From an uncultured Acidobacteriaceae bacterium (lineage in GTDB: Bacteria; Acidobacteriota; Terriglobia; Terriglobales; Acidobacteriaceae), in contig CAWCRQ010000143.1 of assembly GCA_963797885.1 (NCBI GenBank), forward strand, positions 2,349-66,348: 64,000 nucleotides of DNA, read 5' to 3'. A program made the position numbers and the translations under genes. The notes beneath the pieces were generated by a model. The model saw only the letters and a list, made by a program, of their open reading frames with translations. It did not search any database and was not told where the DNA came from. Shown piece after piece: positions 40,940-59,209 of this stretch (positions are counted from its first letter, which is position 1; every line of letters starts with the position of its first letter).

Positions 40940-41195
40940 GTTTGCGAAGGAGCTGATGTAGATTATCCAGCCCGCGTTCAGAAAAGGTTTCTCCATCCTC
41001 GTCGGCAAGTCGCTAATTCTGAGTAGCGGGATTGGGCGGAAAAACTCGTCAACTAACAACCTGATTTTCGAACGCTACCCACTCGGCGAACTCACAATGA
41101 GTGTAATTGATTCCATGACAATGTCGGCTCCCATTCCCGGGTAAAGTTGGTGGTGCTGAAGCCAACCAACGGGCTCGGGAGAAAGGAGCCGAACG

Positions 41196-42259
41196 ATGAT
41201 CATTATAGGAGTAGATTTCCACCCCGAGTTTCAGCAGATCGCGTTGTTGGATACGGACAGCGGAGAGTTCCAGGAAAAGCGACTGATGCATCGCGAGGAG
41301 GCGGAGAAGTTTTACCGCGTTCTCGCGGCAGCCGGTCAGAAGGTGCGAGTGGGCATGGAAGCCAGCGGACACGCTCGCTGGTTCGAACGGCTGCTGGCGG
41401 AGTTGCAGTTGGATTGTGGATCGGGGACGCGGCAGAGATTCAGAGCAAGCGAGCGCGCAAGCAGAAGACAGACCGGCAGGATGCGCAACACATTCTGAAG
41501 CGCATGCTGAAGGATGACTTTCCGCGGATTTGGGTGCCGAACTGGGAGAACCGGGATCTGCGGCAACGGCTGTGGCATCGGCACCGTCTGGTGCAAGCGC
41601 GGACTCGAATCATGAACCAGTTGCAGGCGCTAGCAATCAATGAAGGACTGCGCTGTAAGAAGCGGCTGTGGCGGGCGGGCGGGCGGCAGCAACTGGAATC
41701 GTTCCGGTTGGCACCATGGGCCAGCCGACGGCGGAGTGATCTGCTGGAGTTGCTAGATCGGCTGAGCCCGAAGATTGCAGAGTTAAGCCAGGCGATCGAG
41801 CAAGAAGCGGCGAAGCAGCCCGAAGCGCAGCGACTGAGGACGCATCCGGATGTGGGTGCTTTGACCGCTTTGGCTTTCGTGCTGATCATCGGCAACGTGG
41901 AGCGCTTTCAGTGCGGGAAACAGATAGCGAGTTATCTGGGGCTGGTACCGCTGGAAAAATCGAGCGGCAACCGGCGACGCTTGGGTCACATCACCAAACA
42001 AGGGAGTTCGATGTTGCGCTTTCTGCTAGTGGAAGCGGCCCAGGTTACGGTGCGCAGCCTGCCGGAGTGGCATAGCCAGTACTTCCATCTGATGATGCGA
42101 CGGGGACGGAAGACAGCGAAAGTGGCGATGGCGCGCCGACTGGCGATTCGTTTGTACTGGATGTGGAGGCAGAGACTGGATTACGAGGAGTTAGTCAAGC
42201 TTGGTTCGCACGCGGGACAGCCCGGAAATCGCGATGGTGTGCAGCGAAACATCGAGTAA
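41196..42259 (+). mobile_element. IS110-family transposase gene, interrupted by one frameshift near 41405-41415
   Basis: MIIIGVDFHPEFQQIALLD..VRVGMEASGHARWFERLLAELQL, then a frame change to LWIGDAAEIQSKRARKQKTDRQDA..HPDVGALTALAFVLIIGNVERFQCGKQIASYLGLVPLEKSSG.. (DEDD_Tnp_IS110 plus Transposase_20 patterns). Element ends are not defined. Confidence 0.85.
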
Positions 42260-42573
42260 TTGATTGGGCATCCCGCTCCCCATTTTCGGGGAGTCTGAAT
42301 GAGTAATCATGATCGCAGTTGCGGACCGAAGAGACGGCTGGGTCGGACCGAGTTCCTGACCTGAAAACGATTACGATGCGAGCCTGGGTTGGAACGGCAC
42401 TTCCTCAGCTAGAGAGAAATGGCGCTCTTCTCCGAGTGCGCGGTGAGGTACGCCCCAAATTTGCTTGACACCGCCGACATTGTCAGAGACGCGATTTATC
42501 GCCAATTGAGGCGATTACCTACCAGTTGGAGGCTCGATCACGGGCTAACATGGCGCATCTTCGTGGGATGCGC

Positions 42574-45672: not shown

Positions 45673-45814
45673 GCGGTGGGAGAGACGGCAGTGTGAGTAC
45701 GATAACTGTCGTAACCAGGCGTTAGCGCTCATTGAGAATTGCAGCCAGACTGGAGGCTGTCGTTTTGTTGTTGGAAACCGCCGAGCCGTTTGTCTTTCTG
45801 AGTATTGGTACTAC

Positions 45815-46211
45815 ATGCAGGGTGTGTACCTATTCGGAAATCGGGAACTCGGCTGGTCCAAGATCGGCAAATCTCGGAACATCGGGAACCGATTCAAAGA
45901 CCTTTGTTGCGTTCTCCCGTTTTTCTATTGAGCAAATCGATGTCTTCGAATGCAAAGACCCTGGCTTTTTGGAAGTTCAACTCCACAGGCATTTTGCGAG
46001 CAAGCGAATGCGGGGTGAGTGGTTCCGGCTCGACCAGGATGACCTCAGCTCGTGGCGCATCATGGCACCAAAGCTTGCCCAGCGAACCAACTTTCGCAAA
46101 CAGGCAGCGAATATCCGCAAGGGTCAGTGGTCGAAAGAGGCTCGTGCTCGGGTGCAGCGAAGCCGGGAATCCAGGCGTTTGTCCACTTTGTCCAATCAAG
46201 CCTCTCGATGA
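45815..46211 (+). pseudogene. GIY-YIG-like / T5orf172 (MUG113) domain gene with a frameshift near 45900
   Basis: MQGVYLFGNRELGWSKIGKSRNIGNRFKDL.. then a frame change to ..FSIEQIDVFECKDPGFLEVQLHRHFASKRMRGEWFRLDQDDL. This is the T5orf172 pattern (hYhh..K.G.s.n...R...h......H..h...+..gEWF). Confidence 0.55.
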
Positions 46212-50008: not shown

Positions 50009-50368
50009 TTACGGCTTGCTTCCTTGGGGTAGCTTGGGCTTTCCTTCGGTTGGTGCAGCATCTTTTTTGGCCGGCTTCACACTGCCGACATTTAAGGCAT
50101 TGCCTATGGTTGTTATATTACCCTCCGCAATGAGTTTTGCCAGACTTGAGATCAGGGGGGCCAGATCCTGAACATTTCCATCGGCATTGCCGATATTCAG
50201 TCCGTTGCCTATGAAGACCACTCTGTGGTCCAGAATAGCCTGAAGCAGTTGACGCACGACGGAGGACTTGTCTTCCGGCTCACTCAAGAACTCTACCCGC
50301 ACGTGGGCACGGCAAAAAATTCCCAATAGCAAGAGTGCTGTTGACAAACATGCGTATTTTGACTTCAC
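50009..50368 (-). CDS. Secreted hypothetical protein
   Basis: Signal peptide MKSKYACLSTALLLLGIF. GN-repeat-like segment IGNGLNIGNADGN..IGNALNVG. Confidence 0.4.
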   Translation of the reverse strand: MKSKYACLSTALLLLGIFCRAHVRVEFLSEPEDKSSVVRQLLQAILDHRVVFIGNGLNIGNADGNVQDLAPLISSLAKLIAEGNITTIGNALNVGSVKPAKKDAAPTEGKPKLPQGSKP

Positions 50369-50377
50369 GGGATTGCC

Positions 50378-50776
50378 TCACTTTGCGTCTGATTTAACGA
50401 GGTTGATGAAACGAGTTCCTTTCCCAGTAATGGCGACAAAGCCCAAAGGCCGCGCTTCACCGCTCACATAAAACAGATTGGCTTGAGACTCGGCACTTTG
50501 TGGGGCGGTTCCACTCGGCACCTTGGTGGCCGCACTGCCGAATTTTCCGTGGACCATGAGGATCGGGATTAGCGTGACAGAACCGACTTTGATCGGCTCC
50601 CCTATGACAGTTCTTACGTTGAGATCGTGACTCAGGCGCTGAGCCATGCCGTCAACGAGATCCGATGTGCTTGGCGGTTGGACAGGCTTTGCTTTTTGTT
50701 GCGGCGCATTTTGAGCCATTCCGAGAGAGCCGACCAACAGGAGAAACATGATTGAGGGGATGATCTTCTTGGCCAA
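50378..50776 (-). CDS. GerW/YtfJ-family-like secreted protein
   Basis: GGAGG is followed 6 nt later by a TTG start. Signal peptide (M)AKKIIPSIMFLLLVGSLGMAQ. ..VIGEPIKVGSVTLIPILMV..ARPLGFVAITGKGTRFI.. matches the YtfJ/GerW pattern. Confidence 0.5.
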   Translation of the reverse strand: MAKKIIPSIMFLLLVGSLGMAQNAPQQKAKPVQPPSTSDLVDGMAQRLSHDLNVRTVIGEPIKVGSVTLIPILMVHGKFGSAATKVPSGTAPQSAESQANLFYVSGEARPLGFVAITGKGTRFINLVKSDAK

Positions 50777-50944
50777 GGGATACCTCCAATTTTGAACTCG
50801 GCACGAACAGAAGCGAATGGCGATCCGTGGCATGGCTGAAACCAGCTCATCGAGAGTGCGGAGGGAAGGGTGGCGACAGCGGTAGCGCGAAAAGGGCTTT
50901 GGGAAACAGCGTCGGATCGGACAAAACCATCCAGCGCACGTCGG

Positions 50945-51073
50945 CCCACCTTCCTTCCTAGCGGAAGTGTGGCCGAGCGGTCCTCGCCGTCAAGGGTTCG
51001 CTGACGCCGCACACAACGCGCCCTTGACGGCTCCGGGCCGCTCTGAAAACCCTCCGCTAGGAAGGAAGGTGGG
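50945..51073. repeat. 129-nt nested inverted repeat (long hairpin or cruciform)
   Basis: Perfect 21-nt arms CCCACCTTCCTTCCTAGCGGA (50945-50965) and TCCGCTAGGAAGGAAGGTGGG (51053-51073). They enclose an inner perfect pair GCCGTCAAGGG / CCCTTGACGGC and further partial pairing. TTTT follows on the + strand. Confidence 0.8.
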
Positions 51074-51149
51074 TTTTAGGAAGGCAATTCAAAATCTACT
51101 TGACATAGACCGGCATTCTCATGGAAGGCGATAGCGCTCAGAATGCAGG

Positions 51150-51527
51150 TCAGGCCGCGTCCTCCGCTAAGAATTTGGCGAAGGAACGAATCAACTTCAA
51201 CTTGTCCTCCCGTAAACCGCGCAGCTCTTGTTCATTGAGTCGGCTTTCGTGCAAAAGTCTCCCAAAAACGTGCGCGAGTTGCGAATACCGATAGTCGTAC
51301 TTGCGGTCGATCTCTTTACGACGTTGGGTCAGGTAATGTTCCAAGTCCCACAGATCTGACGACTGCTGGATCTGGCTGGCCATCTTCTTTGCTTGCTGAA
51401 TCACCTCGTGAAGCTCTCGCCCCAGGGCAGCGTCGAAGGCTGTGCGGGCGATGGCCTTTTCTGACCTCGACCAAATCGGTTCGTTCTGGTAGGGATAGCT
51501 GTCTTGAGTCACAGACGGGCTGGTCAT
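51150..51527 (-). CDS. Fluorescence-recovery-protein (FRP) family homologue
   Basis: ..PIWSRSEKAIARTAFDAALGRELHEVIQQAKKMASQIQQSSDLWDLEHYLTQRRKEIDRKYDYRYSQLAHVFGRLLHESRLNEQELRGLREDKLKLIRSFA aligns motif-for-motif with cyanobacterial FRP as remembered (PWSQAE..A...F..A..REL....V...AS.I.Q..DLW.L..FL...R.EID.KYD.R.S....VF..LL.E....EEL..L..DK...I). Confidence 0.7.
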   Translation of the reverse strand: MTSPSVTQDSYPYQNEPIWSRSEKAIARTAFDAALGRELHEVIQQAKKMASQIQQSSDLWDLEHYLTQRRKEIDRKYDYRYSQLAHVFGRLLHESRLNEQELRGLREDKLKLIRSFAKFLAEDAA

Positions 51528-52576
51528 GTTCCGATCCTCCGTGGCCGCATTCTACCCCTTGCCCGAATGCCTTTTCTACAGCTTCGCTGGCCCCGTCCGC
51601 CGGGACAGATTCCACATGTTTCGCCTGCTGCTGCCCATCCGTTCTGAGGTCGAAAAGGTCGTTCACTGGATGTCCGAGATTCTGTTTGCAGCCGAGATAG
51701 CGTTCCGTTGTCTGGACGGAGGCATGTCCCAGCAAGAATTGAATCTGCTCCAGCTCACCTCCGCTGCTGTGGCACAGCTTCGCACAGGTTCTCCGCAGGT
51801 CGTGCGGTGCAATGTGCTCCAGCCCCGCTCTCTCGCAACACGTCTTGACTACATACCACACAACATTCTGCGAGATGCCTTTCCCCCACACCTTTCCCGT
51901 CCTGGCTACGGCTCGAAAGATCCTTCCCTGCGTGACCCCTTGCTGCTCGTGTCCACTGATCGAGGGCTACTTTCACCCATTCTGGAATGGGCACGGTACG
52001 GATGTGGCCACCCTTGCCGATCAGATCCACCACTGCCCAGTGACGGTGACGCATCTGGATCTCATCCAAATCCAAGCCGACCAACTCAGATCTGCGAAAG
52101 CCACAACCAAACAACATGGCCAGCATCGCGCAGTCGCGCTTGGCTCGCATGCTATCGCCACAAGCACGGTTAAGTACTTCTGAACTTTGCTCTGCGCTCA
52201 ACCAATTACCGGAGCGAAACCGGAGTTGCTTGACTCCTTTAACTCGGCTGATCCCCGCCGCCAACTCAGGGCTCAACAAGCCTGAATCGGCGGCTTCGTG
52301 AGCGAGACGGCGCACCGCTGCGAGTTGTTGGTTGACGGTGTTGGCGGCCAGACCGCGTGATTCGAGGTGCATGCGGTAGCGAACGACTACGATACGATTG
52401 AAGGCGAGGCGCGGCTCGGAGCAGTACCAGGCGATAAATTGATCGATGGCGTACTCATAAACCCGGCGCGAGGCGGGCGAGCCGAGGCTATTGAGCACCG
52501 CCAATTTACAATGATCCAGATCCGGCAGCCGAAGCACTCGGCGACGATAATTTGACTTGATTCTTTGTTTGCCCAT
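51316..52576 (-). pseudogene. Tyrosine recombinase/integrase with a single frameshift near 51940
   Basis: N-terminal part ..YEYAIDQFIAWY..ANTVNQQLAAVRRLA..AMLAMLFGCGFRRSELVGL..IGKGGHIRTVPIPEWVKVALDQWTRAA continues in the -1 frame as GVTQGRIFRAVARTGKVWGKGISQNVVWYVV..HDLRRTCAKLC..LLGHASVQTTERYLG. The 3' tail of the ORF overlaps the FRP-like gene. Confidence 0.8.
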
Positions 52577-52804
52577 GGCGACGGCCTCCCATGCCGCAGG
52601 ATTGGAACTACGGCAGACCGTCGGGGCAATGCAAGCACTGCACCAGGTACCGGCTTAGATCAAGATGACGAGGTTGAGGATCTTGATCACGGTGAGAACC
52701 GAATTCGGCTGGGTTGTCCGCGGTAAGGGGCATCGGTTATTCTGGCGAGGCTGGGACGCGTCTCCCTGCATCGCCCCGTGTCCGTTTCTCCCTGGAGTTC
52801 ACCC

Positions 52805-53953
52805 ATGACGTTGACCCGGTTCGTCACTAAGAACGCCTTCCGCAACAGGCGCCGCAGCATTCTCACCGTGCTGAGCATCGCTTTCTCTTTGCTGCTGCTC
52901 ACGCTGATGATGGCCATCTGGCGCGGCTTTTACCTGGACGACGGCAGCAAGGAATCGGCGCAGCGCCTGGTCGTGCGGCACCGCGTTTCGCTGACGTTTT
53001 CACTTCCCAGTTTCTACCGGGAAAAGATCCGGGCGATTCCTGGAGTGGTTGCCGTTGTCCCGGTTTCGTGGTTTGGCGGAATTTATAAGGATCAGAAGCC
53101 GGAAAACTTCTTCGCCCAGTTCGCCGTCGATCCGGAAGAATTCTTCAAGGTCTACCGCGACATCCAGATGCCCGAGGATCAAATCACCGCGTGGCAGCGG
53201 GACCGGCAAGGCGTGATCGTCGAGGACGATCTGGCCCAGAAATATGGATGGAAGCTGGGTGACCGCATCGTGTTGCAGGGTACGATTTATCCCTTCAATC
53301 CTGAACTAAACATCCGCGGCATTTACCACACTGACCCGGCCGCAAAGTCGGTTTACTTTCATACCAAGTACATGGAGGAGTCGGTCGGCTTCTTCAAAGG
53401 TCAGGCTGGCACATTCAGCGTGCTTGCGGCCAATCCCTCCGATGTCAGCCAGATCACGACCTCCATCGACGACATGTTCCGCAACTCGCCGCAACCGACC
53501 AAGGCGGAGAGCGAAAAGGCCTTCGGCCTCGAGTTCGTGGCCATGATGGGCAACGTGAAAGCGTTCATCCTGAGCATCTGTTCGGCTGTAGTTTTCGCGA
53601 CTTTGCTGGTCTCGGCCAACACCATGGCGATGTCGATCCGCGAGCGCACTCGCGAAGTGGCCGTTCTCAAAACTCTCGGTTTCACGCGCCGCAGCGTTCT
53701 TGGCTTATTTGTCAGTGAGGCGGTCGCCCTGTCATTAGTGGGCGGGCTGATCGGCATTTTCCTGGGTTGGCTCATGGTGTATGGGCTGACCCATTCGCCG
53801 CAGTTCTTCAGCTTCTTCCCCCTGAAGGTGACGGCCGGCATTGGTGTGCTTTCCATGGTGACGGCCGGTTTGGTGGGGCTGCTGAGTTCAGCGGTGCCGT
53901 CGTATCACGCATCGCAGGTCAACATTGTCGACGGACTGCGCCACATCGGCTGA
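52805..53953 (+). CDS. ABC transporter permease, FtsX/MacB-type (paralogue 1)
   Basis: MTLTRFVTKNAFRNRRRSILTVLSIAFSLLLL.. is followed by a large periplasmic loop and a C-terminal FtsX 3-TM bundle (..RTREVAVLKTLGFTRRSVL..). Confidence 0.85.
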   Translation: MTLTRFVTKNAFRNRRRSILTVLSIAFSLLLLTLMMAIWRGFYLDDGSKESAQRLVVRHRVSLTFSLPSFYREKIRAIPGVVAVVPVSWFGGIYKDQKPENFFAQFAVDPEEFFKVYRDIQMPEDQITAWQRDRQGVIVEDDLAQKYGWKLGDRIVLQGTIYPFNPELNIRGIYHTDPAAKSVYFHTKYMEESVGFFKGQAGTFSVLAANPSDVSQITTSIDDMFRNSPQPTKAESEKAFGLEFVAMMGNVKAFILSICSAVVFATLLVSANTMAMSIRERTREVAVLKTLGFTRRSVLGLFVSEAVALSLVGGLIGIFLGWLMVYGLTHSPQFFSFFPLKVTAGIGVLSMVTAGLVGLLSSAVPSYHASQVNIVDGLRHIG

Positions 53954-54027
53954 TTTTGTGTAGGGGCGGACGCGCTCGTCCGCCCGGTCGAGCGAAGCTC
54001 GACGGTTCTTGAGATCAGGACGAACTT

Positions 54028-55179
54028 ATGACGCTGGGAAGTTTCATCGTGCGCAACACGTTTCGCAACAAGCGGCGCAGCCTGCTGACCATGATCAGCA
54101 TCAGCTTCTCGCTGCTGTTGCTGACGCTGATGATCTCCATCTGGCGCTCGTTTTACGTGGATCAGGTCGCGCCCGAAGCGTCGCGGCGGCTCATCATTCG
54201 CGATCGCGTTTCGCTGGCGTTTTTTCTGCCGGCGTACTATCGCGACAAGATTCGCAGCGTCCCCGGCATCACCGCAGTCGCTCCGCTGACCTGGTTTGAA
54301 GGCCGCTACATCGACAACCGCCCCGAGCACTTTTTTGCGCGGCTGGCCACCGATCCCGACGAATATCTGAAGGTTGCATCGGACAAAATCACGCCGCCGG
54401 ATCAGGTCAAGGCCTGGCAGCAGGATCGCGCCGGCGCGCTAGCGGACGTCACTTTGGCCGATAAGTACGGCTGGAAACTCGGCGACCACATTCACCTTCA
54501 AGGCACGATTTTCCCCTACGATCTCGATCTGACGATTCGTGCCATTTATCATCGTGATCCGCCGCAGAACGCGCTTTATTTCCACACTAAATACTTGGAA
54601 GAAGCCGTGCCGTGGTTCAAGGGACAGGCGGGATGGTATGCCGCGCAGGTCGATTCAGCGGATCACGTCGCATCCGCGTCGAAACAAATTGATGACATGT
54701 TTCGTAACTCGCCGCTGCAGACCAAGAGCGAGAGCGAGAAGGCGTTTCAGCTCGGCTTTGTCGCCTCGCTGGGAAACGTGAAGGCATTCATTCTTGGAAT
54801 CTCCGGCGCGGTGATGTTCGCCATTATGCTGGTTTCGGCCAACACCATGGCGATGTCGGTGCGCAGCCGCACCCGCGAAGTGGCTGTGCTAAAGACGCTC
54901 GGCTTTACGAAACAGCGCGTGCTCTCGATCTTCGTGAGCGAAGCCATCGCTCTTTCGGTGGCCGGAGGAGTGCTGGGAGTTCTGGTGGCGATCCCGGTCA
55001 TCACAGGCATGACACATCGTTTCATCGGGCTCGGCATTCCTTTGGACATGAAGGTGAAAGCGCCGACCGCAGGATTGGCGTTGCTGGTGGCTTTGATTCT
55101 GGGCGTGGTGAGCGGCTATCTGCCAGCGTATCGTGCATCGCGCATGAATATTGTGGAGGGGCTACGGCATATTGGGTGA
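54028..55179 (+). CDS. ABC transporter permease, FtsX/MacB-type (paralogue 2)
   Basis: MTLGSFIVRNTFRNKRRSLLTMISISFSLLLL..RTREVAVLKTLGFTKQRVL.. is clearly paralogous to 52805-53953. Confidence 0.85.
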   Translation: MTLGSFIVRNTFRNKRRSLLTMISISFSLLLLTLMISIWRSFYVDQVAPEASRRLIIRDRVSLAFFLPAYYRDKIRSVPGITAVAPLTWFEGRYIDNRPEHFFARLATDPDEYLKVASDKITPPDQVKAWQQDRAGALADVTLADKYGWKLGDHIHLQGTIFPYDLDLTIRAIYHRDPPQNALYFHTKYLEEAVPWFKGQAGWYAAQVDSADHVASASKQIDDMFRNSPLQTKSESEKAFQLGFVASLGNVKAFILGISGAVMFAIMLVSANTMAMSVRSRTREVAVLKTLGFTKQRVLSIFVSEAIALSVAGGVLGVLVAIPVITGMTHRFIGLGIPLDMKVKAPTAGLALLVALILGVVSGYLPAYRASRMNIVEGLRHIG

Positions 55180-55245
55180 AGAAGCTTTCCCACCGTCCGA
55201 AAACCGCGAAGGGTGGGCCATCCTTCGAGCAGAGAGAGTTGAACT

Positions 55246-56433
55246 ATGGCGATTCCGATCAGCTATAACATCCGCAATCTAAGGCTACGCAAAGGTCTCA
55301 CGGTTATGACCGCGCTGGGCATCGCGCTCACCGTCACCACGGCGATTTTCCTGATGGCGCTGGTGGCCGGGCTTAACCGCGCCTTCGTCTCGAGCGGCAG
55401 CAAGCTGAACGTGCTGGTGCTGCGCAAGGGATCAGAGTCGGAACTGACCGGCGGATTCGATGCTGCCCTCTTCCCCACGCTGAAAGTGCTTCCGGGCATC
55501 GCCAAAGATAGTCACGGCGAGCCGCTCGCCTCCGGCGAGTGGAACGTGGTGATCGTGCTGCCGCGGAAAGACGGCACCGGGGAAGTGAACGTAACCGTGC
55601 GCGGCATGATGCCCGACGGGCTTGAGATGCGCCAGTTGCCGGGCGCGGACGGCAAGCCGAGCGTGAAGCTTGTGGAAGGGCGCTGGTTCGAGACCGGGCA
55701 GCGCGAAGTAGTAGTGAGCAAGTCCATCCGCGAGCGCTTCGCGCATGCCAATATCGGCGACACGATGGAGTTCGGCAAAGGATCGTGGAAAGTAGTCGGC
55801 GTGTTTGACGCGGGCGGTTCGGCATACGAGTCTGAAATCTGGGGCGACGTGAATCAGATGGCCTCCGACTTCGACCGCCAAGGAGGCTTTTCGTCGGCGT
55901 ATCTGCGTGCGACTGATCCTATCGCCGCCGAGGCACTCAAGAATCGCGTGAGCGACGATCAGCGGCTGAAGCTCGACGGTTTGATCGAGACCGATTATTA
56001 CGCCAAGCAAACCAGTTCCGGCACGCCCATCAAGATCATCGGGATCGTGGTGGCGATCATTATGGCGATCGGATCGATTTTCGCCGCCATGAACACCATG
56101 TATGCGGCGGTGGCGTATCGCGGGCGCGAGATTGCGACTTTGCGGGTCATCGGCTTTTCCCGGCCGGCGATTCTGACGTCGTTCGTGCTGGAATCGTTGA
56201 TTCTGGCTCTACTGGGCGCGGCGCTGGGCATTGTGCTCATGCTGCCGTTCAACGGCATGCAGACGGGGACCTCGAACCAGGTCACGTTCAGCGAGGTCGT
56301 TTTCGCCCTGCGCATTACATGGTCGGTAGCAATCGCAGCCATGTGTTTTGCCCTGGTGATGGGATTTTTCGGCGGGCTCGCTCCCGCCTGGCACGCGGCG
56401 CGGCAGAATATATTGAACGCGCTGCGGGGATAG
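55246..56433 (+). CDS. ABC transporter permease, FtsX/DevC-like (paralogue 3)
   Basis: MAIPISYNIRNLRLRKGLTVMTALGIALTV..GREIATLRVIGFSRPAIL.. is a more divergent FtsX-family permease. Confidence 0.85.
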   Translation: MAIPISYNIRNLRLRKGLTVMTALGIALTVTTAIFLMALVAGLNRAFVSSGSKLNVLVLRKGSESELTGGFDAALFPTLKVLPGIAKDSHGEPLASGEWNVVIVLPRKDGTGEVNVTVRGMMPDGLEMRQLPGADGKPSVKLVEGRWFETGQREVVVSKSIRERFAHANIGDTMEFGKGSWKVVGVFDAGGSAYESEIWGDVNQMASDFDRQGGFSSAYLRATDPIAAEALKNRVSDDQRLKLDGLIETDYYAKQTSSGTPIKIIGIVVAIIMAIGSIFAAMNTMYAAVAYRGREIATLRVIGFSRPAILTSFVLESLILALLGAALGIVLMLPFNGMQTGTSNQVTFSEVVFALRITWSVAIAAMCFALVMGFFGGLAPAWHAARQNILNALRG

Positions 56434-56458
56434 CAGCACTTCGCTCGGCGCGGAATGT

Positions 56459-56600
56459 TTTGAAAGGGCACGCCTTAAGGCGTGCCGCCAGGCAACTGCA
56501 ACGAGCGCGGCTTTAGCCGCTGGGGGCGTTGCCTCAGGGCCTGAAGGCCCAATGCAACTGGGGCTTTCGGGCGGCGTGGCTGAAGCCACGCCCTTTCAAA
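56459..56600. repeat. 142-nt GC-rich multi-hairpin intergenic element (REP/BIME-like)
   Basis: Outer arms TTTGAAAGGGC / GCCCTTTCAAA enclose GGCACGCC-TTAA-GGCGTGCC, GCGGC-TTTA-GCCGC, GGGCC-TGAA-GGCCC and GGCGTGGC-TGAA-GCCACGCC, plus AGGCAAC..GTTGCCT. Confidence 0.6.
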
Positions 56601-56657
56601 GCGATGCGGAGAGAGGTTGAATGACACAATCTCAACGGCAGTTCGTAATTTTCAAAT

Positions 56658-58040
56658 ATGGCGATTGATACCAAACACGAAGATCTGCAGAGCCTGCGCA
56701 TCGACCGCTCGCAGCGCGGCGACAATGGCGGCGGCGAGCCGCCGGCCTGGACGCGGCGTTTCATCATCGTCGGGATCGCGATGGTCGTGCTGCTCGGCCT
56801 GATCGCAGTCGCTTACCGCGCGTTTTCTGCGAGCGTGCCGGAAGTTGAGGTCGCCCGCGCCGCGGCTGAGTCGAGCGATGTAGGCGGAACGGTGCTGTCC
56901 GCGACCGGCTACATCGTGGCCCATCACACCATCAACGTAAACTCAAAGGTCACGGGCCGCCTGGCGTGGATTGGCGTGGAAAAGGGCGACAAGGTCAAGG
57001 AGGGCCAGGTGCTGGTCCGCCTGGAAGACCAGGAATTTCGCGCTGCGTATGAGCAGGCCGAAGGCGCCGTAGCCAACGCCCGCTCCTATCTCGAAGAACT
57101 GCAGCACGGTTCGCGGCCGCAGGAGATTCAGCAGGCGCAGCACAATCTCGACGAGGCCCGCGCCACGCTGGTTAACGACAAGCTGACGCTTGACCGCACA
57201 AAAGAGCTTACCGCCGCAGGCGTAGTCTCACGGCAGCAACTAGACGACGCGACCGCCAAGTTCGAGGCCGATCAGCAGCGCGTGAATTCGCTGCAGAGAG
57301 CGTTTGAGCTGACGTATATCGGTCCGCGGCAGGAAGAGATCGCCCGCGCCCAGGGCGCTCTCGTGCAGGCTCAAGGGCAGCTGGATTATGCCAAGTCCCA
57401 GCTGGACGCCACCATCATTCGCGCGCCCGTGACCGGCACCATTCTCGATCGCACTGCGGAGAAAGGCGAGCTGATTACGGCGCAGTTTGCCAGCGCGGCC
57501 GCAGGCGGGCCTCAGGGATCGGTTGTATCGCTCGCTGACCTGAACGATCTGCAGGTGGAGCTCGACATCGCCCAGGCCGACTTTGCGCGACTCAGCCCAG
57601 CGCAGAAGGCAAAAGTCACGACCGACACGTATCCAGACAAGGAATACGACGGCGTCATCGCGCAAATTTCACCCGAGGCGAACCGGCAGAAGGCGACGGT
57701 GCAAGTAAAGGTTCAGGTGCTGAATCCGGACAAGTATCCCGAGATCCAGCTGCGGCCAGAGATGAACGCAACTGTAAAATTCCTGGCCAATGACACACCG
57801 AAGGATGCGAAAGGACCTTCCGGCGTTTTTGTTCCGTCGGCGGCGATTCGCGATCGCGACGGCAAGAAAATTGTTCTGGTTGCGTTCAACGGCAAGGCTG
57901 TCGCTCGCGAGATTCACGTACTGAGCCCGCGCAGCGATGGAGCGTTGGTTGACGGGCTGGTCGGCGGCGAGAGCATCATCACGACCGCGCCGGCAACTTT
58001 GAAGGACGGGGACAAAATCAGAATCAAGGGTCAAAACTAA
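56658..58040 (+). CDS. Efflux transporter periplasmic adaptor (HlyD/MFP, MacA/DevB-like)
   Basis: N-terminal TM anchor, lipoyl/barrel-sandwich segments (..GYIVAHHTINVNSKVTGRLAWIGVEKGDKVKEGQVLVRL..), a long coiled-coil hairpin, then ..IIRAPVTGTILDR.. Confidence 0.88.
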   Translation: MAIDTKHEDLQSLRIDRSQRGDNGGGEPPAWTRRFIIVGIAMVVLLGLIAVAYRAFSASVPEVEVARAAAESSDVGGTVLSATGYIVAHHTINVNSKVTGRLAWIGVEKGDKVKEGQVLVRLEDQEFRAAYEQAEGAVANARSYLEELQHGSRPQEIQQAQHNLDEARATLVNDKLTLDRTKELTAAGVVSRQQLDDATAKFEADQQRVNSLQRAFELTYIGPRQEEIARAQGALVQAQGQLDYAKSQLDATIIRAPVTGTILDRTAEKGELITAQFASAAAGGPQGSVVSLADLNDLQVELDIAQADFARLSPAQKAKVTTDTYPDKEYDGVIAQISPEANRQKATVQVKVQVLNPDKYPEIQLRPEMNATVKFLANDTPKDAKGPSGVFVPSAAIRDRDGKKIVLVAFNGKAVAREIHVLSPRSDGALVDGLVGGESIITTAPATLKDGDKIRIKGQN

Positions 58041-59045: not shown

Positions 59046-59209
59046 GGTTTTGAGTGCTATCGCCTGTGGGTGTTGAAAAAGGAACGAAAGCAGTAATTTC
59101 AGCGAATTTTAGCGTCTGCAGCGAACCAACATTCAATAACCTACAAACGAATTTCGCTGTTGAGAATTCCCTGAAAGGAGTTTTTCAACAGCCACGCCTG
59201 ATAGCGACA
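59046..59209 (+). repeat. ~163-nt MITE-like repeat, copy B
   Basis: Aligns over its whole length with the reverse complement of 18209-18371. Internal inverted repeats are GTGGGTGTTGAAAAAGG (59066-59082) and TTTTTCAACAGCCACGC (59181-59197). Confidence 0.7.

Follow-up and report, generated by a model that had tools for sequence, protein, structure and literature searches.

The window analysed here is a stretch of 64,000 nucleotides from an uncultured Acidobacteriaceae bacterium (GenBank assembly GCA_963797885.1, contig CAWCRQ010000143.1, positions 2,349 to 66,348 of the forward strand). The genome is a metagenome-assembled genome (MAG) of 4.55 Mb on 151 contigs, 77 % complete, with one gene of the fluorescence recovery protein (FRP) family, coding for an FRP-like protein (FRPL). 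A sequence-only reading of the window had described this gene as an FRP homologue of 125 aa in a non-phototrophic bacterium, horizontally mobile and adjoining an integrase. We find it in a small repeat-bounded unit together with a tyrosine recombinase, of which related copies are present in other Terriglobia. The following features lie at the locus:

51125-52658, minus strand: whole surviving recombinase-FRPL unit of 1,534 nt, delimited by the limits of homology to other copies
51150-51527, minus strand: intact FRPL gene, recognized by its open reading frame (ORF), the Pfam family FRP, PDB entry 8AG8, AlphaFold2/Foldseek and the ratio of nonsynonymous to synonymous substitution rates (dN/dS)
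51528-51584, minus strand: conserved block upstream of FRPL with a promoter-like site and a Shine-Dalgarno sequence, from a consensus scan and the conservation in 37 copies
51316-52576, minus strand: broken Xer-like tyrosine recombinase, the Phage_integrase profile being split across two frames
51125-51140, no strand assigned: 16-nt core of the right end, AAGGCGATAGCGCTCA on the plus strand, with one mismatch to the consensus of the 16-mer found in about 35 loci
50838-51140, no strand assigned: 303-nt dispersed repeat with three genomic copies, adjoining the unit and including the right-end 16-mer AAGGCGATAGCGCTCA

The FRPL protein

The ORF at 51150-51527 on the minus strand starts with ATG, includes its stop codon (51150-51152) and encodes 125 aa. 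The product matched the Pfam model FRP (PF18032) over profile positions 1-98 of 99 with 74.6 bits (curated cut-off 26.6, E 9.2e-21); no NCBIfam model matched it. A phmmer search against the PDB placed the FRP-like protein 8AG8 at the top (E 3.2e-26), followed by the FRPs of Fremyella (5TZ0, E 3.8e-21) and Synechocystis (4JDX, E 9.2e-16). The alignments were gap-free across about 103 residues and reproduced every motif that the sequence-only reading had listed. An AlphaFold2 monomer model, calculated from an alignment of 31 FRPLs translated from the fetched loci, was all-helical (mean pLDDT 89.1, pTM 0.77) with helices at residues 21-51, 56-76, 81-93 and 107-124, arranged in the long antiparallel two-helix stalk and small helical head of the FRP fold. 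Foldseek retrieved 8AG8 as best match (TM scores 0.80/0.94, rmsd 1.1 Å, 47 % identity), then 5TZ0 and 4JDX; beyond these three entries there was no match below E = 0.1. The first reading had proposed a profile search and a structure prediction, and would have dropped the assignment for a missing match or a different fold; the outcome was a full-length match and an all-helical FRP fold. There is hardly any doubt that the window ORF is a member of the FRPL family.

The protein itself is of an already known type, a further member of a published family, because FRPLs have been described by Steube et al. 2023 as sporadic, dimeric proteins of FRP-like structure, mainly in proteobacteria and acidobacteria (PMC10172135). 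Their function was termed "potentially stress-related", levels and localisation of PbFRPL from Pseudomonas borbori change on starvation, and a lateral acquisition of FRP by cyanobacteria was proposed (PMC10172135). Integrases, gene neighbours and mobile elements are not mentioned in that paper (PMC10172135). PbFRPL (8AG8) belongs to the same Pfam family as the window FRPL, is about 47 % identical to it over 104 residues, superposes on the model with 1.1 Å rmsd and likewise comes from a non-phototroph without OCP (orange carotenoid protein), HCP and CTDH. PbFRPL is encoded by a solitary chromosomal gene, whereas the shallow clade of the window FRPL rides with a recombinase, and often with a gene for a PRiA4_ORF3 protein (PF07929), in a repeat-bounded unit. 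With the cyanobacterial FRPs (Slr1964, 4JDX; Fremyella, 5TZ0) the window protein has the fold in common (TM 0.66-0.89), at about 40 % identity. W60 and R70 are the counterparts of W50 and R60 in Synechocystis FRP (gap-free alignment to 4JDX) and are conserved to at least 90 % among 30-31 FRPLs; the window FRPL retains these two surface residues and those of the KYDYRYS motif. In contrast, the residues F76, K102 and L106, by which FRP contacts OCP1 (PMC10172135), are replaced by H86, L112 and F116. With a pI of 8.0 the protein is near-neutral, and none of the known DNA-binding motifs is present in it.

The nearest FRPL homologues carry names such as "Candidatus Acidoferrum". In the 77 % complete genome of the window no gene was found for Carot_N (OCP/HCP; PF09150), NTF2 (OCP C-terminal domain/CTDH; PF02136), PsaA/PsaB or Photo_RC; the Carot_N result is the weakest of the four negatives, because none of the 14 control genomes provided a positive control for that search. 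The published survey detected no OCP, HCP or CTDH in any FRPL genome (PMC10172135). The search for OCP-, CTDH- and HCP-like genes that the first reading had suggested thus returned none, with the above limit on Carot_N, and its view of an FRP-family protein in a non-phototroph holds; more precisely, the protein is an FRPL.

A unit of tyrosine recombinase and FRPL

FRPL loci were collected from species-representative genomes, all of them Terriglobia MAGs, by fetching the best 80 of 386 pattern matches; the locus search profile was a 9-sequence subset of 30 diverse FRPLs. The locus counts below refer to related, non-independent copies, and all genomes are MAGs. About 55 FRPLs were at least 68 % identical to that of the window and are called close copies. 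In about 42 of these the same tyrosine recombinase occupied -931 to -59, counted from the FRPL start (tblastn). Between the window and the FRPL loci of four genomes of the same genus only the stretch 51126-52637, comprising integrase and FRPL, was common, with 68-93 % identity, and the flanks differed (blastn). About 25 copies in other genomes matched the window's unit with 81-88 % identity over about 1.5 kb, and the homology was confined to 51125-52658. At 25 more distant acidobacterial FRPL loci neither this recombinase nor PRiA4_ORF3 adjoined (tblastn), and an all-against-all clustering of the neighbours within 5 kb of these loci revealed no recurrent family. The integrase is not a chance neighbour of FRPL: the genes travel jointly as a repeat-bounded unit.

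The recombinase has the characters of a tyrosine recombinase, i.e., the catalytic residues R, K, HxxR, H and Y and an N-terminal SAM-like core-binding domain. An intact relative at locus L037 comprises 418 aa with the SAM-like domain and Phage_integrase positions 2-166 of 172, and its best PDB match was XerD (1A0P). The window's recombinase is not XerC/XerD proper (77.5 bits, NCBIfam equivalog cut-off 335) nor an integron integrase (integrase_gron 23-27 bits, cut-off 265); the unit's end sites do not fit the integron R''/R' core by inspection. In the window the Phage_integrase profile is split into positions 2-86 in one frame and 103-166 in the other. The motifs RRSEL, GKGGHIR, HDLRR, LLGH and ERY are all still encoded over the two frames. 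In comparison with five intact relatives, one extra G in a G-run at about 51939 splits the gene into the ORFs 52576-51755 and 51891-51316. The integrase of the sequence-only reading is thus real, yet interrupted by a frameshift in the window, which could be an assembly error.

Homology among the loci starts at about -1086 (-1346 in a longer variant) and stops at +374 in units without PRiA4_ORF3 and between +974 and +989 in those with it; it stops sharply at both ends. A 16-nt core bounds the unit on either side in inverted orientation: it is TGAGCGCTATCGCCTG at the right end of both variants and CAGGCGATAGCGCTCA, the exact reverse complement, at the left end. In about 35 loci this 16-mer stands straight after FRPL or PRiA4_ORF3 and closes the unit. 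A looser arm of about 15 nt (consensus GATAACTGTTGTAAC) extends the core outwards and is likewise inverted between the ends, so that the whole site measures about 31 nt. Both ends were present in 15 loci, where the 16-nt inverted pair was perfect or near-perfect; judged by eye, the architecture of the end sites is that of the terminal inverted repeats of a transposon-like element. Units of recombinase and FRPL are 1,477-1,556 nt long, those with the longer left part about 1,746 nt and those with PRiA4_ORF3 2,114-2,321 nt. An interpretation of the 31-nt site as two-arm Xer-type site or attC core was rejected, as inspection revealed no dyad symmetry. Inverted ends suit an inversion or a transposase-type movement better than an Xer-type excision. 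A possible case of inversion, an 80-nt flank common to L036 and L045 in opposite orientation, was discarded since the flank itself is a dispersed repeat. The H segment of Salmonella with Hin and hix also holds a recombinase gene within about 1-1.5 kb between short inverted repeats; Hin is a serine recombinase at a fixed locus. The FRPL unit, unlike this, encodes a tyrosine recombinase and occupies many loci, and no pair in inverted orientation at one locus was found.

At the right end of the window's unit the 16-mer is part of the 303-nt repeat, which is present in three copies of 99 % identity in the window's genome; the other two are located at about C5:21116-21420 and about C147:17535-17837 (G000, the window's genome). 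The repeat contains an imperfect hairpin of 129 nt (50945-51073), which is not a known RNA, since an Rfam search of 50300-52900 gave no match. The same repeat sequence adjoins the right end of the unit in L021, L041 and L047. The window's copy, where homology begins at about 52658, lacks the left 16-mer along with about 8 adjacent bases; this end is present in relatives. The copy in the window is thus decayed: the recombinase is frameshifted and the left end lost, while FRPL is intact. An uninterrupted recombinase frame was present in only about 20 of the about 55 close copies, and copies of the same genus bear different lesions, i.e., a frameshift at another position, an in-frame stop or a 2.1-kb insertion.

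A recurrent breakpoint in the recombinase at about -265 (about 51792 in the window) was observed in L023, L032, L048, L060, L066 and others. The insertions there have a size of 0.3-3.4 kb, end in a TATGCCGCAyrCGGCATA hairpin with a REP-like or IS200/IS605-like look and sit at a small hairpin of the recombinase gene itself, CCGCACGACCTGCGG. The pattern resembles a repeated disruption of this recombinase by an element that targets hairpins.

The recombinase frame extends about 125 codons past the catalytic domain and ends in nearly all copies at exactly +211 inside FRPL. In the window the overlap of this tail with FRPL covers 51316-51527 (211 nt), and the same stretch was found in about 40 loci (L021-L064). 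Codons creating a stop in the overlapping frame were present in 3 of 698 at-risk contexts in FRPL codons 1-70, compared with 29 of 611 in codons 71-125. A paralogous recombinase of the same genome (G000 C40, 46 % identity) ends about 25 residues past the catalytic Tyr and is not followed by an FRPL. A functional C-terminal extension of the recombinase over FRPL was considered and rejected: the synonymous substitution rate dS was only slightly lower in the overlap (0.33 vs 0.40), and the stretch from -110 to -58 is not conserved; yet the frame has been kept open.

The distribution of FRPL is patchy. Sampling of the genus yielded the gene in 5 of 24 species, that of the sister family in 0 of 16; within the class, 25 of 376 high-quality genomes and 18 of 141 genera had it. 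The flanks of the unit are unrelated between genomes, and the outer flanks fall into few recurrent sequence types that are themselves repeats. Of the five genomes holding the closest FRPLs, three lacked a DNA-level orthologue of the ABC-transporter operon that flanks the unit in the window, and the other two had it with 67-72 % identity. The proportion of synonymous differences (pS) of FRPL was 0.27 (range 0.14-0.42) between the window and 36 copies, far below the pS of 0.66 of the flanking permease between the window and ten same-genus orthologues, which indicates that the copies coalesce much more recently than their hosts; this yardstick is a single gene and could include paralogues, the permease having been chosen since the incomplete MAG lacks rpoB. 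In a maximum-likelihood tree the unit-linked FRPLs formed a shallow group of 47 rows, including 11 with undetectable recombinase, at a support of 89/88, below the threshold for a well-supported branch. Three unit-type rows (L066, L069, L071) were placed outside this group, near its base or beside solitary FRPLs, and the solitary FRPLs sit on long, deep branches. Recent activity is not indicated: the window's genome has one FRPL, and the two copies in genome G020 are 93 % and 79 % identical to that of the window.

It is highly probable that FRPL is part of a horizontally spread recombinase unit. The mobility proposed by the first reading is borne out by a repeat-bounded unit at unrelated sites in dozens of genomes, and further by the low synonymous divergence and the patchy distribution.

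Role of FRPL and competing explanations

Pairwise dN/dS of FRPL was 0.26 among 37 collinear copies. Among 11 copies without recombinase the ORF was intact in all 11, with a dN/dS of 0.31, a pairwise value that mostly reflects the history before the loss; FRPL is also intact in many copies with a broken recombinase. FRPL is under purifying selection and outlasts a destroyed or lost recombinase. The 57-nt block upstream of FRPL is conserved to 80-100 % per column in 37 copies, and the 50 nt 5' of it vary. It contains a putative promoter, TAGAAA-18 nt-TAGAAT at 51578-51549, found by a consensus scan, and the Shine-Dalgarno sequence GGAGGA at 51540-51535, 8 nt 5' of the ATG and present in 35 of 37 copies. 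Several independently truncated or recombinase-less copies retain the sequence from about -57 onwards. The promoter-like site of its own, the selection and the survival without recombinase lead us to read FRPL as an independently expressed cargo or accessory gene.

In 16 loci the FRPL stop overlaps by 4 nt with the start of a further gene (+377 to +937), which encodes a full-length PRiA4_ORF3 protein (PF07929, E 1.9e-55); the sole solved relative is the unannotated structure 2I1S. PRiA4_ORF3/MM3350-like proteins are known as mobile-DNA passengers and bear the NCBI name "IS1096 element passenger TnpR family". Among 927 FRP-family matches (E <=1e-3) in a representative library at 50 % identity was a 386-aa fusion protein with PRiA4_ORF3 at residues 7-173 and FRP at 276-370. 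Four clusters of this fusion exist that are mutually 62-67 % identical, and this architecture is accordingly kept by selection rather than an artefact of assembly. Two of the clusters were located on contigs as solitary genes, one of them beside an unrelated integrase. On the JGI metagenome contigs L113 (6001-7161) and L115 (6001-7230), genes for PRiA4_ORF3-linker-FRP fusions code for 386-409 aa, and the FRP domain replaces the usual C-terminal domain of the PRiA4_ORF3 proteins of about 320 aa that are common in Acidoferrum-like bacteria. The fusions and the overlapping gene pair in 16 units may be taken as "Rosetta-stone" evidence for a functional link between FRPL and PRiA4_ORF3. None of the PADLOC models matched FRPL, PRiA4_ORF3 or the recombinase, and a PHROGs search yielded generic integrase matches only. 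In the literature search we found no account of a PRiA4_ORF3 function, nor of a linkage or fusion of PRiA4_ORF3 to an FRP domain.

In the explanation we favour, with a probability of about 60 %, FRPL is the second gene of a compact recombinase unit that has spread and then decayed, and acts as a self-standing cargo or adaptor. The unit would consist of the Xer-like tyrosine recombinase, FRPL and, in about one third of the copies, PRiA4_ORF3; it would have spread horizontally among Terriglobia, acidobacteria of soil and peat, before decaying in many genomes. FRPL, an elongated all-helical FRP-fold protein that almost certainly does not serve an orange carotenoid protein here, would have been kept for its own activity and not only for the movement of the unit. 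It may be a homodimeric protein-protein adaptor or regulator, with a PRiA4_ORF3-type protein as partner or, failing that, the recombinase. This mechanism is suggested by the analogy to FRP, a dimeric scaffold that binds a domain of another protein, and by the four PRiA4_ORF3-FRP fusions. That FRPL is an independently useful cargo acting by binding a protein partner is put forward tentatively and by analogy, at somewhat less than even odds. We infer the dimerisation of FRPL, its partner, the unit's mode of movement and the cellular role. For the partner, left open by the sequence-only reading, the PRiA4_ORF3 protein and the recombinase of the unit are now candidates.

Several observations weigh against this explanation, besides the limits given above for the pS yardstick and for dN/dS after recombinase loss. 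No direct repeats or target-site duplications were seen beyond the unit ends, and neither an empty site nor a circular form was found. In 11 same-genus genomes the orthologues of the window's left-flank permease have other upstream neighbours, and the whole L045 locus, when searched for within its genus, matched only the unit and dispersed repeats, not the flanks; a syntenic empty site was not found because flanks are not conserved between species. With inverted instead of direct ends, a simple tyrosine recombinase is expected to invert rather than to excise. Many of the 16-mers in the window's genome are solitary, beside ordinary genes or an IS110-type transposase, thus the ends may belong to a dispersed repeat family and not to the unit itself. 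Near-identical pairs of copies were absent (best protein identity 94 %, minimum pS 0.14), which indicates past rather than demonstrably ongoing mobility. FRPL was detected neither on 72,556 plasmids and 50,697 phage records (tblastn) nor, as a relative, in a pattern scan of IMG/VR. Two thirds of the units, that of the window among them, have no PRiA4_ORF3, which is therefore not an obligatory partner.

The alternative that survives best, unlikely as we consider it, is a segment that does not move by itself: the inverted ends would be members of a dispersed family of recombination sites or miniature repeats, with FRPL as one of many cassettes, swapped or inverted as in pdif-bounded dif modules or mobilized by a transposase in trans as a mobile insertion cassette. 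The distribution of the 16-mer points both ways. A pattern search of the window's genome with at most one mismatch detected 14 copies, and none with the reversed control; most are solitary, beside IS110-type transposase, kinases and transporters, and the outer flanks of the unit are few recurrent repeat types. One pair of 16-mers in this genome, 775 nt apart, encloses a recombinase remnant. Five other unit-bearing genomes had 2-10 copies and two FRPL-bearing genomes of the same genus 9 and 3, but the 16-mer was rare in three near-complete FRPL-free genomes of the genus (0, 1 and 2 copies). Recombinase and FRPL always occur together between the sites, whereas the recombinase of dif modules is encoded elsewhere (PMC6449649), and the 31-nt site is devoid of the two-arm dyad symmetry of the XerC/XerD type by inspection. 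The dif modules of Acinetobacter plasmids are likewise small, bounded by inverted short Xer-type sites and found in many contexts, with chromosomal housekeeping recombinases outside the module and 28-bp two-arm sites (PMC6449649); unlike these, the acidobacterial unit is chromosomal, has its recombinase inside and shows no evident dyad symmetry.

It is improbable that FRPL is an obligatory accessory factor of the unit's recombinase, of no value to the cell beyond moving or inverting the unit, in a role like that of Xis for lambda Int or of TnpT for the TnpS recombinase of Tn4651. In favour of this role, two genes in 1.5 kb make up a minimal unit, and pure cargo is rare in elements of this size; moreover FRPL always directly follows the recombinase, the frames overlap by 211 nt in nearly all copies and stops in the overlapping frame are nearly avoided in FRPL codons 1-70. 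However, FRPL and its promoter-like block are intact in at least 11 copies with a deleted recombinase and in many more with a broken one, and the recombinase tail from -110 to -58 is not conserved. Further points against it are the near-neutral pI and the lack of a known DNA-binding motif, and most acidobacterial as well as the proteobacterial FRPLs are solitary, without a recombinase (PMC10172135).

An addiction pair of the toxin-antitoxin kind, with FRPL as small dimeric antidote of PRiA4_ORF3 and FRPL-only copies as antidote remnants, is very improbable. The 4-nt gene overlap is seen in many toxin-antitoxin pairs, and the downstream gene is the one most often lost (kept in 16 of the about 55 copies), the upstream FRPL being retained. 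Yet neither protein matches a PADLOC model, a toxic activity is not known for PRiA4_ORF3, natural fusions as in the four clusters are unusual for such pairs, and PRiA4_ORF3 proteins are common as solitary genes. Finally, a true photoprotection FRP with an OCP-like carotenoid protein encoded elsewhere is scarcely credible: the fold, the conserved W50 and R60 and the incompleteness of the genome would allow for it, but the Carot_N, NTF2, PsaA/B and Photo_RC genes were not found, the three OCP1-contact residues are replaced, and the published FRPL genomes are without OCP, HCP and CTDH (PMC10172135).

The genomic context of FRPL is new and provides the first genetic partners for this orphan family. 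In the literature we found no description of such a recombinase unit in Acidobacteria or Terriglobia. FRP is a textbook allosteric regulator recruited by horizontal transfer, and its non-cyanobacterial relatives are structurally characterised; a recombinase-bearing unit offers a mechanism that could account for their sporadic distribution. The finding draws attention to a compact unit with its own tyrosine recombinase and inverted ends in Terriglobia, with PRiA4_ORF3 and the recombinase as concrete candidates for FRPL binding and the 31-nt sites as candidates for recombination. The significance is moderate, since FRPL taken alone is a typical representative of an already described family. A stronger claim, that recombinase, FRPL and optionally PRiA4_ORF3 form an undescribed compact tyrosine-recombinase element in which an FRP-fold dimeric adaptor on PRiA4_ORF3 or on the recombinase is a working component, is doubtful. 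If true, the FRP fold would have had the regulation of mobile-DNA proteins as its ancestral, non-photosynthetic task, and the lateral acquisition of FRP by cyanobacteria would gain a plausible vehicle.

Further sites and repeats

The genome pattern search with the 16-mer located two further cores in the window:

45716-45731, plus strand: 16-nt core CAGGCGTTAGCGCTCA with the usual outer arm GATAACTGTCGTAAC
59051-59066, minus strand: 16-nt core CAGGCGATAGCACTCA in inverted orientation

The first of these belongs to a 31-nt site (45701-45731) that is followed by a small ORF at 45732-46211 with a MUG113/T5orf172 (GIY-YIG-like) domain (E 8e-8). The region from 45.7 to 52.7 kb looks like a patchwork of mobile DNA. 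At 41098-42513 the window contains an IS110-family element that is 74-76 % identical to L008 15622-17055 and L009 12439-13842, elements which lie 2-6 kb from the recombinase-FRPL units of two other same-genus genomes. On contig C147 of the window's genome (G000) the start of an IS110-type transposase lies 128 nt inside a 16-mer site. Elements of the IS110 type may target the 16-mer sites.

On a contig labelled as a Methanothrix sp. MAG (L096, 2286-2606), an FRP-family gene groups with the cyanobacterial FRPs on long branches; this archaeal-binned gene could be a binning contamination or a transfer. Within the ABC-transporter operon of the window (52778-58040), dispersed repeats of 30-70 nt were present at about 53960-54003 and about 56459-56602; five other Terriglobia genomes contain them at many sites, with 85-100 % identity.

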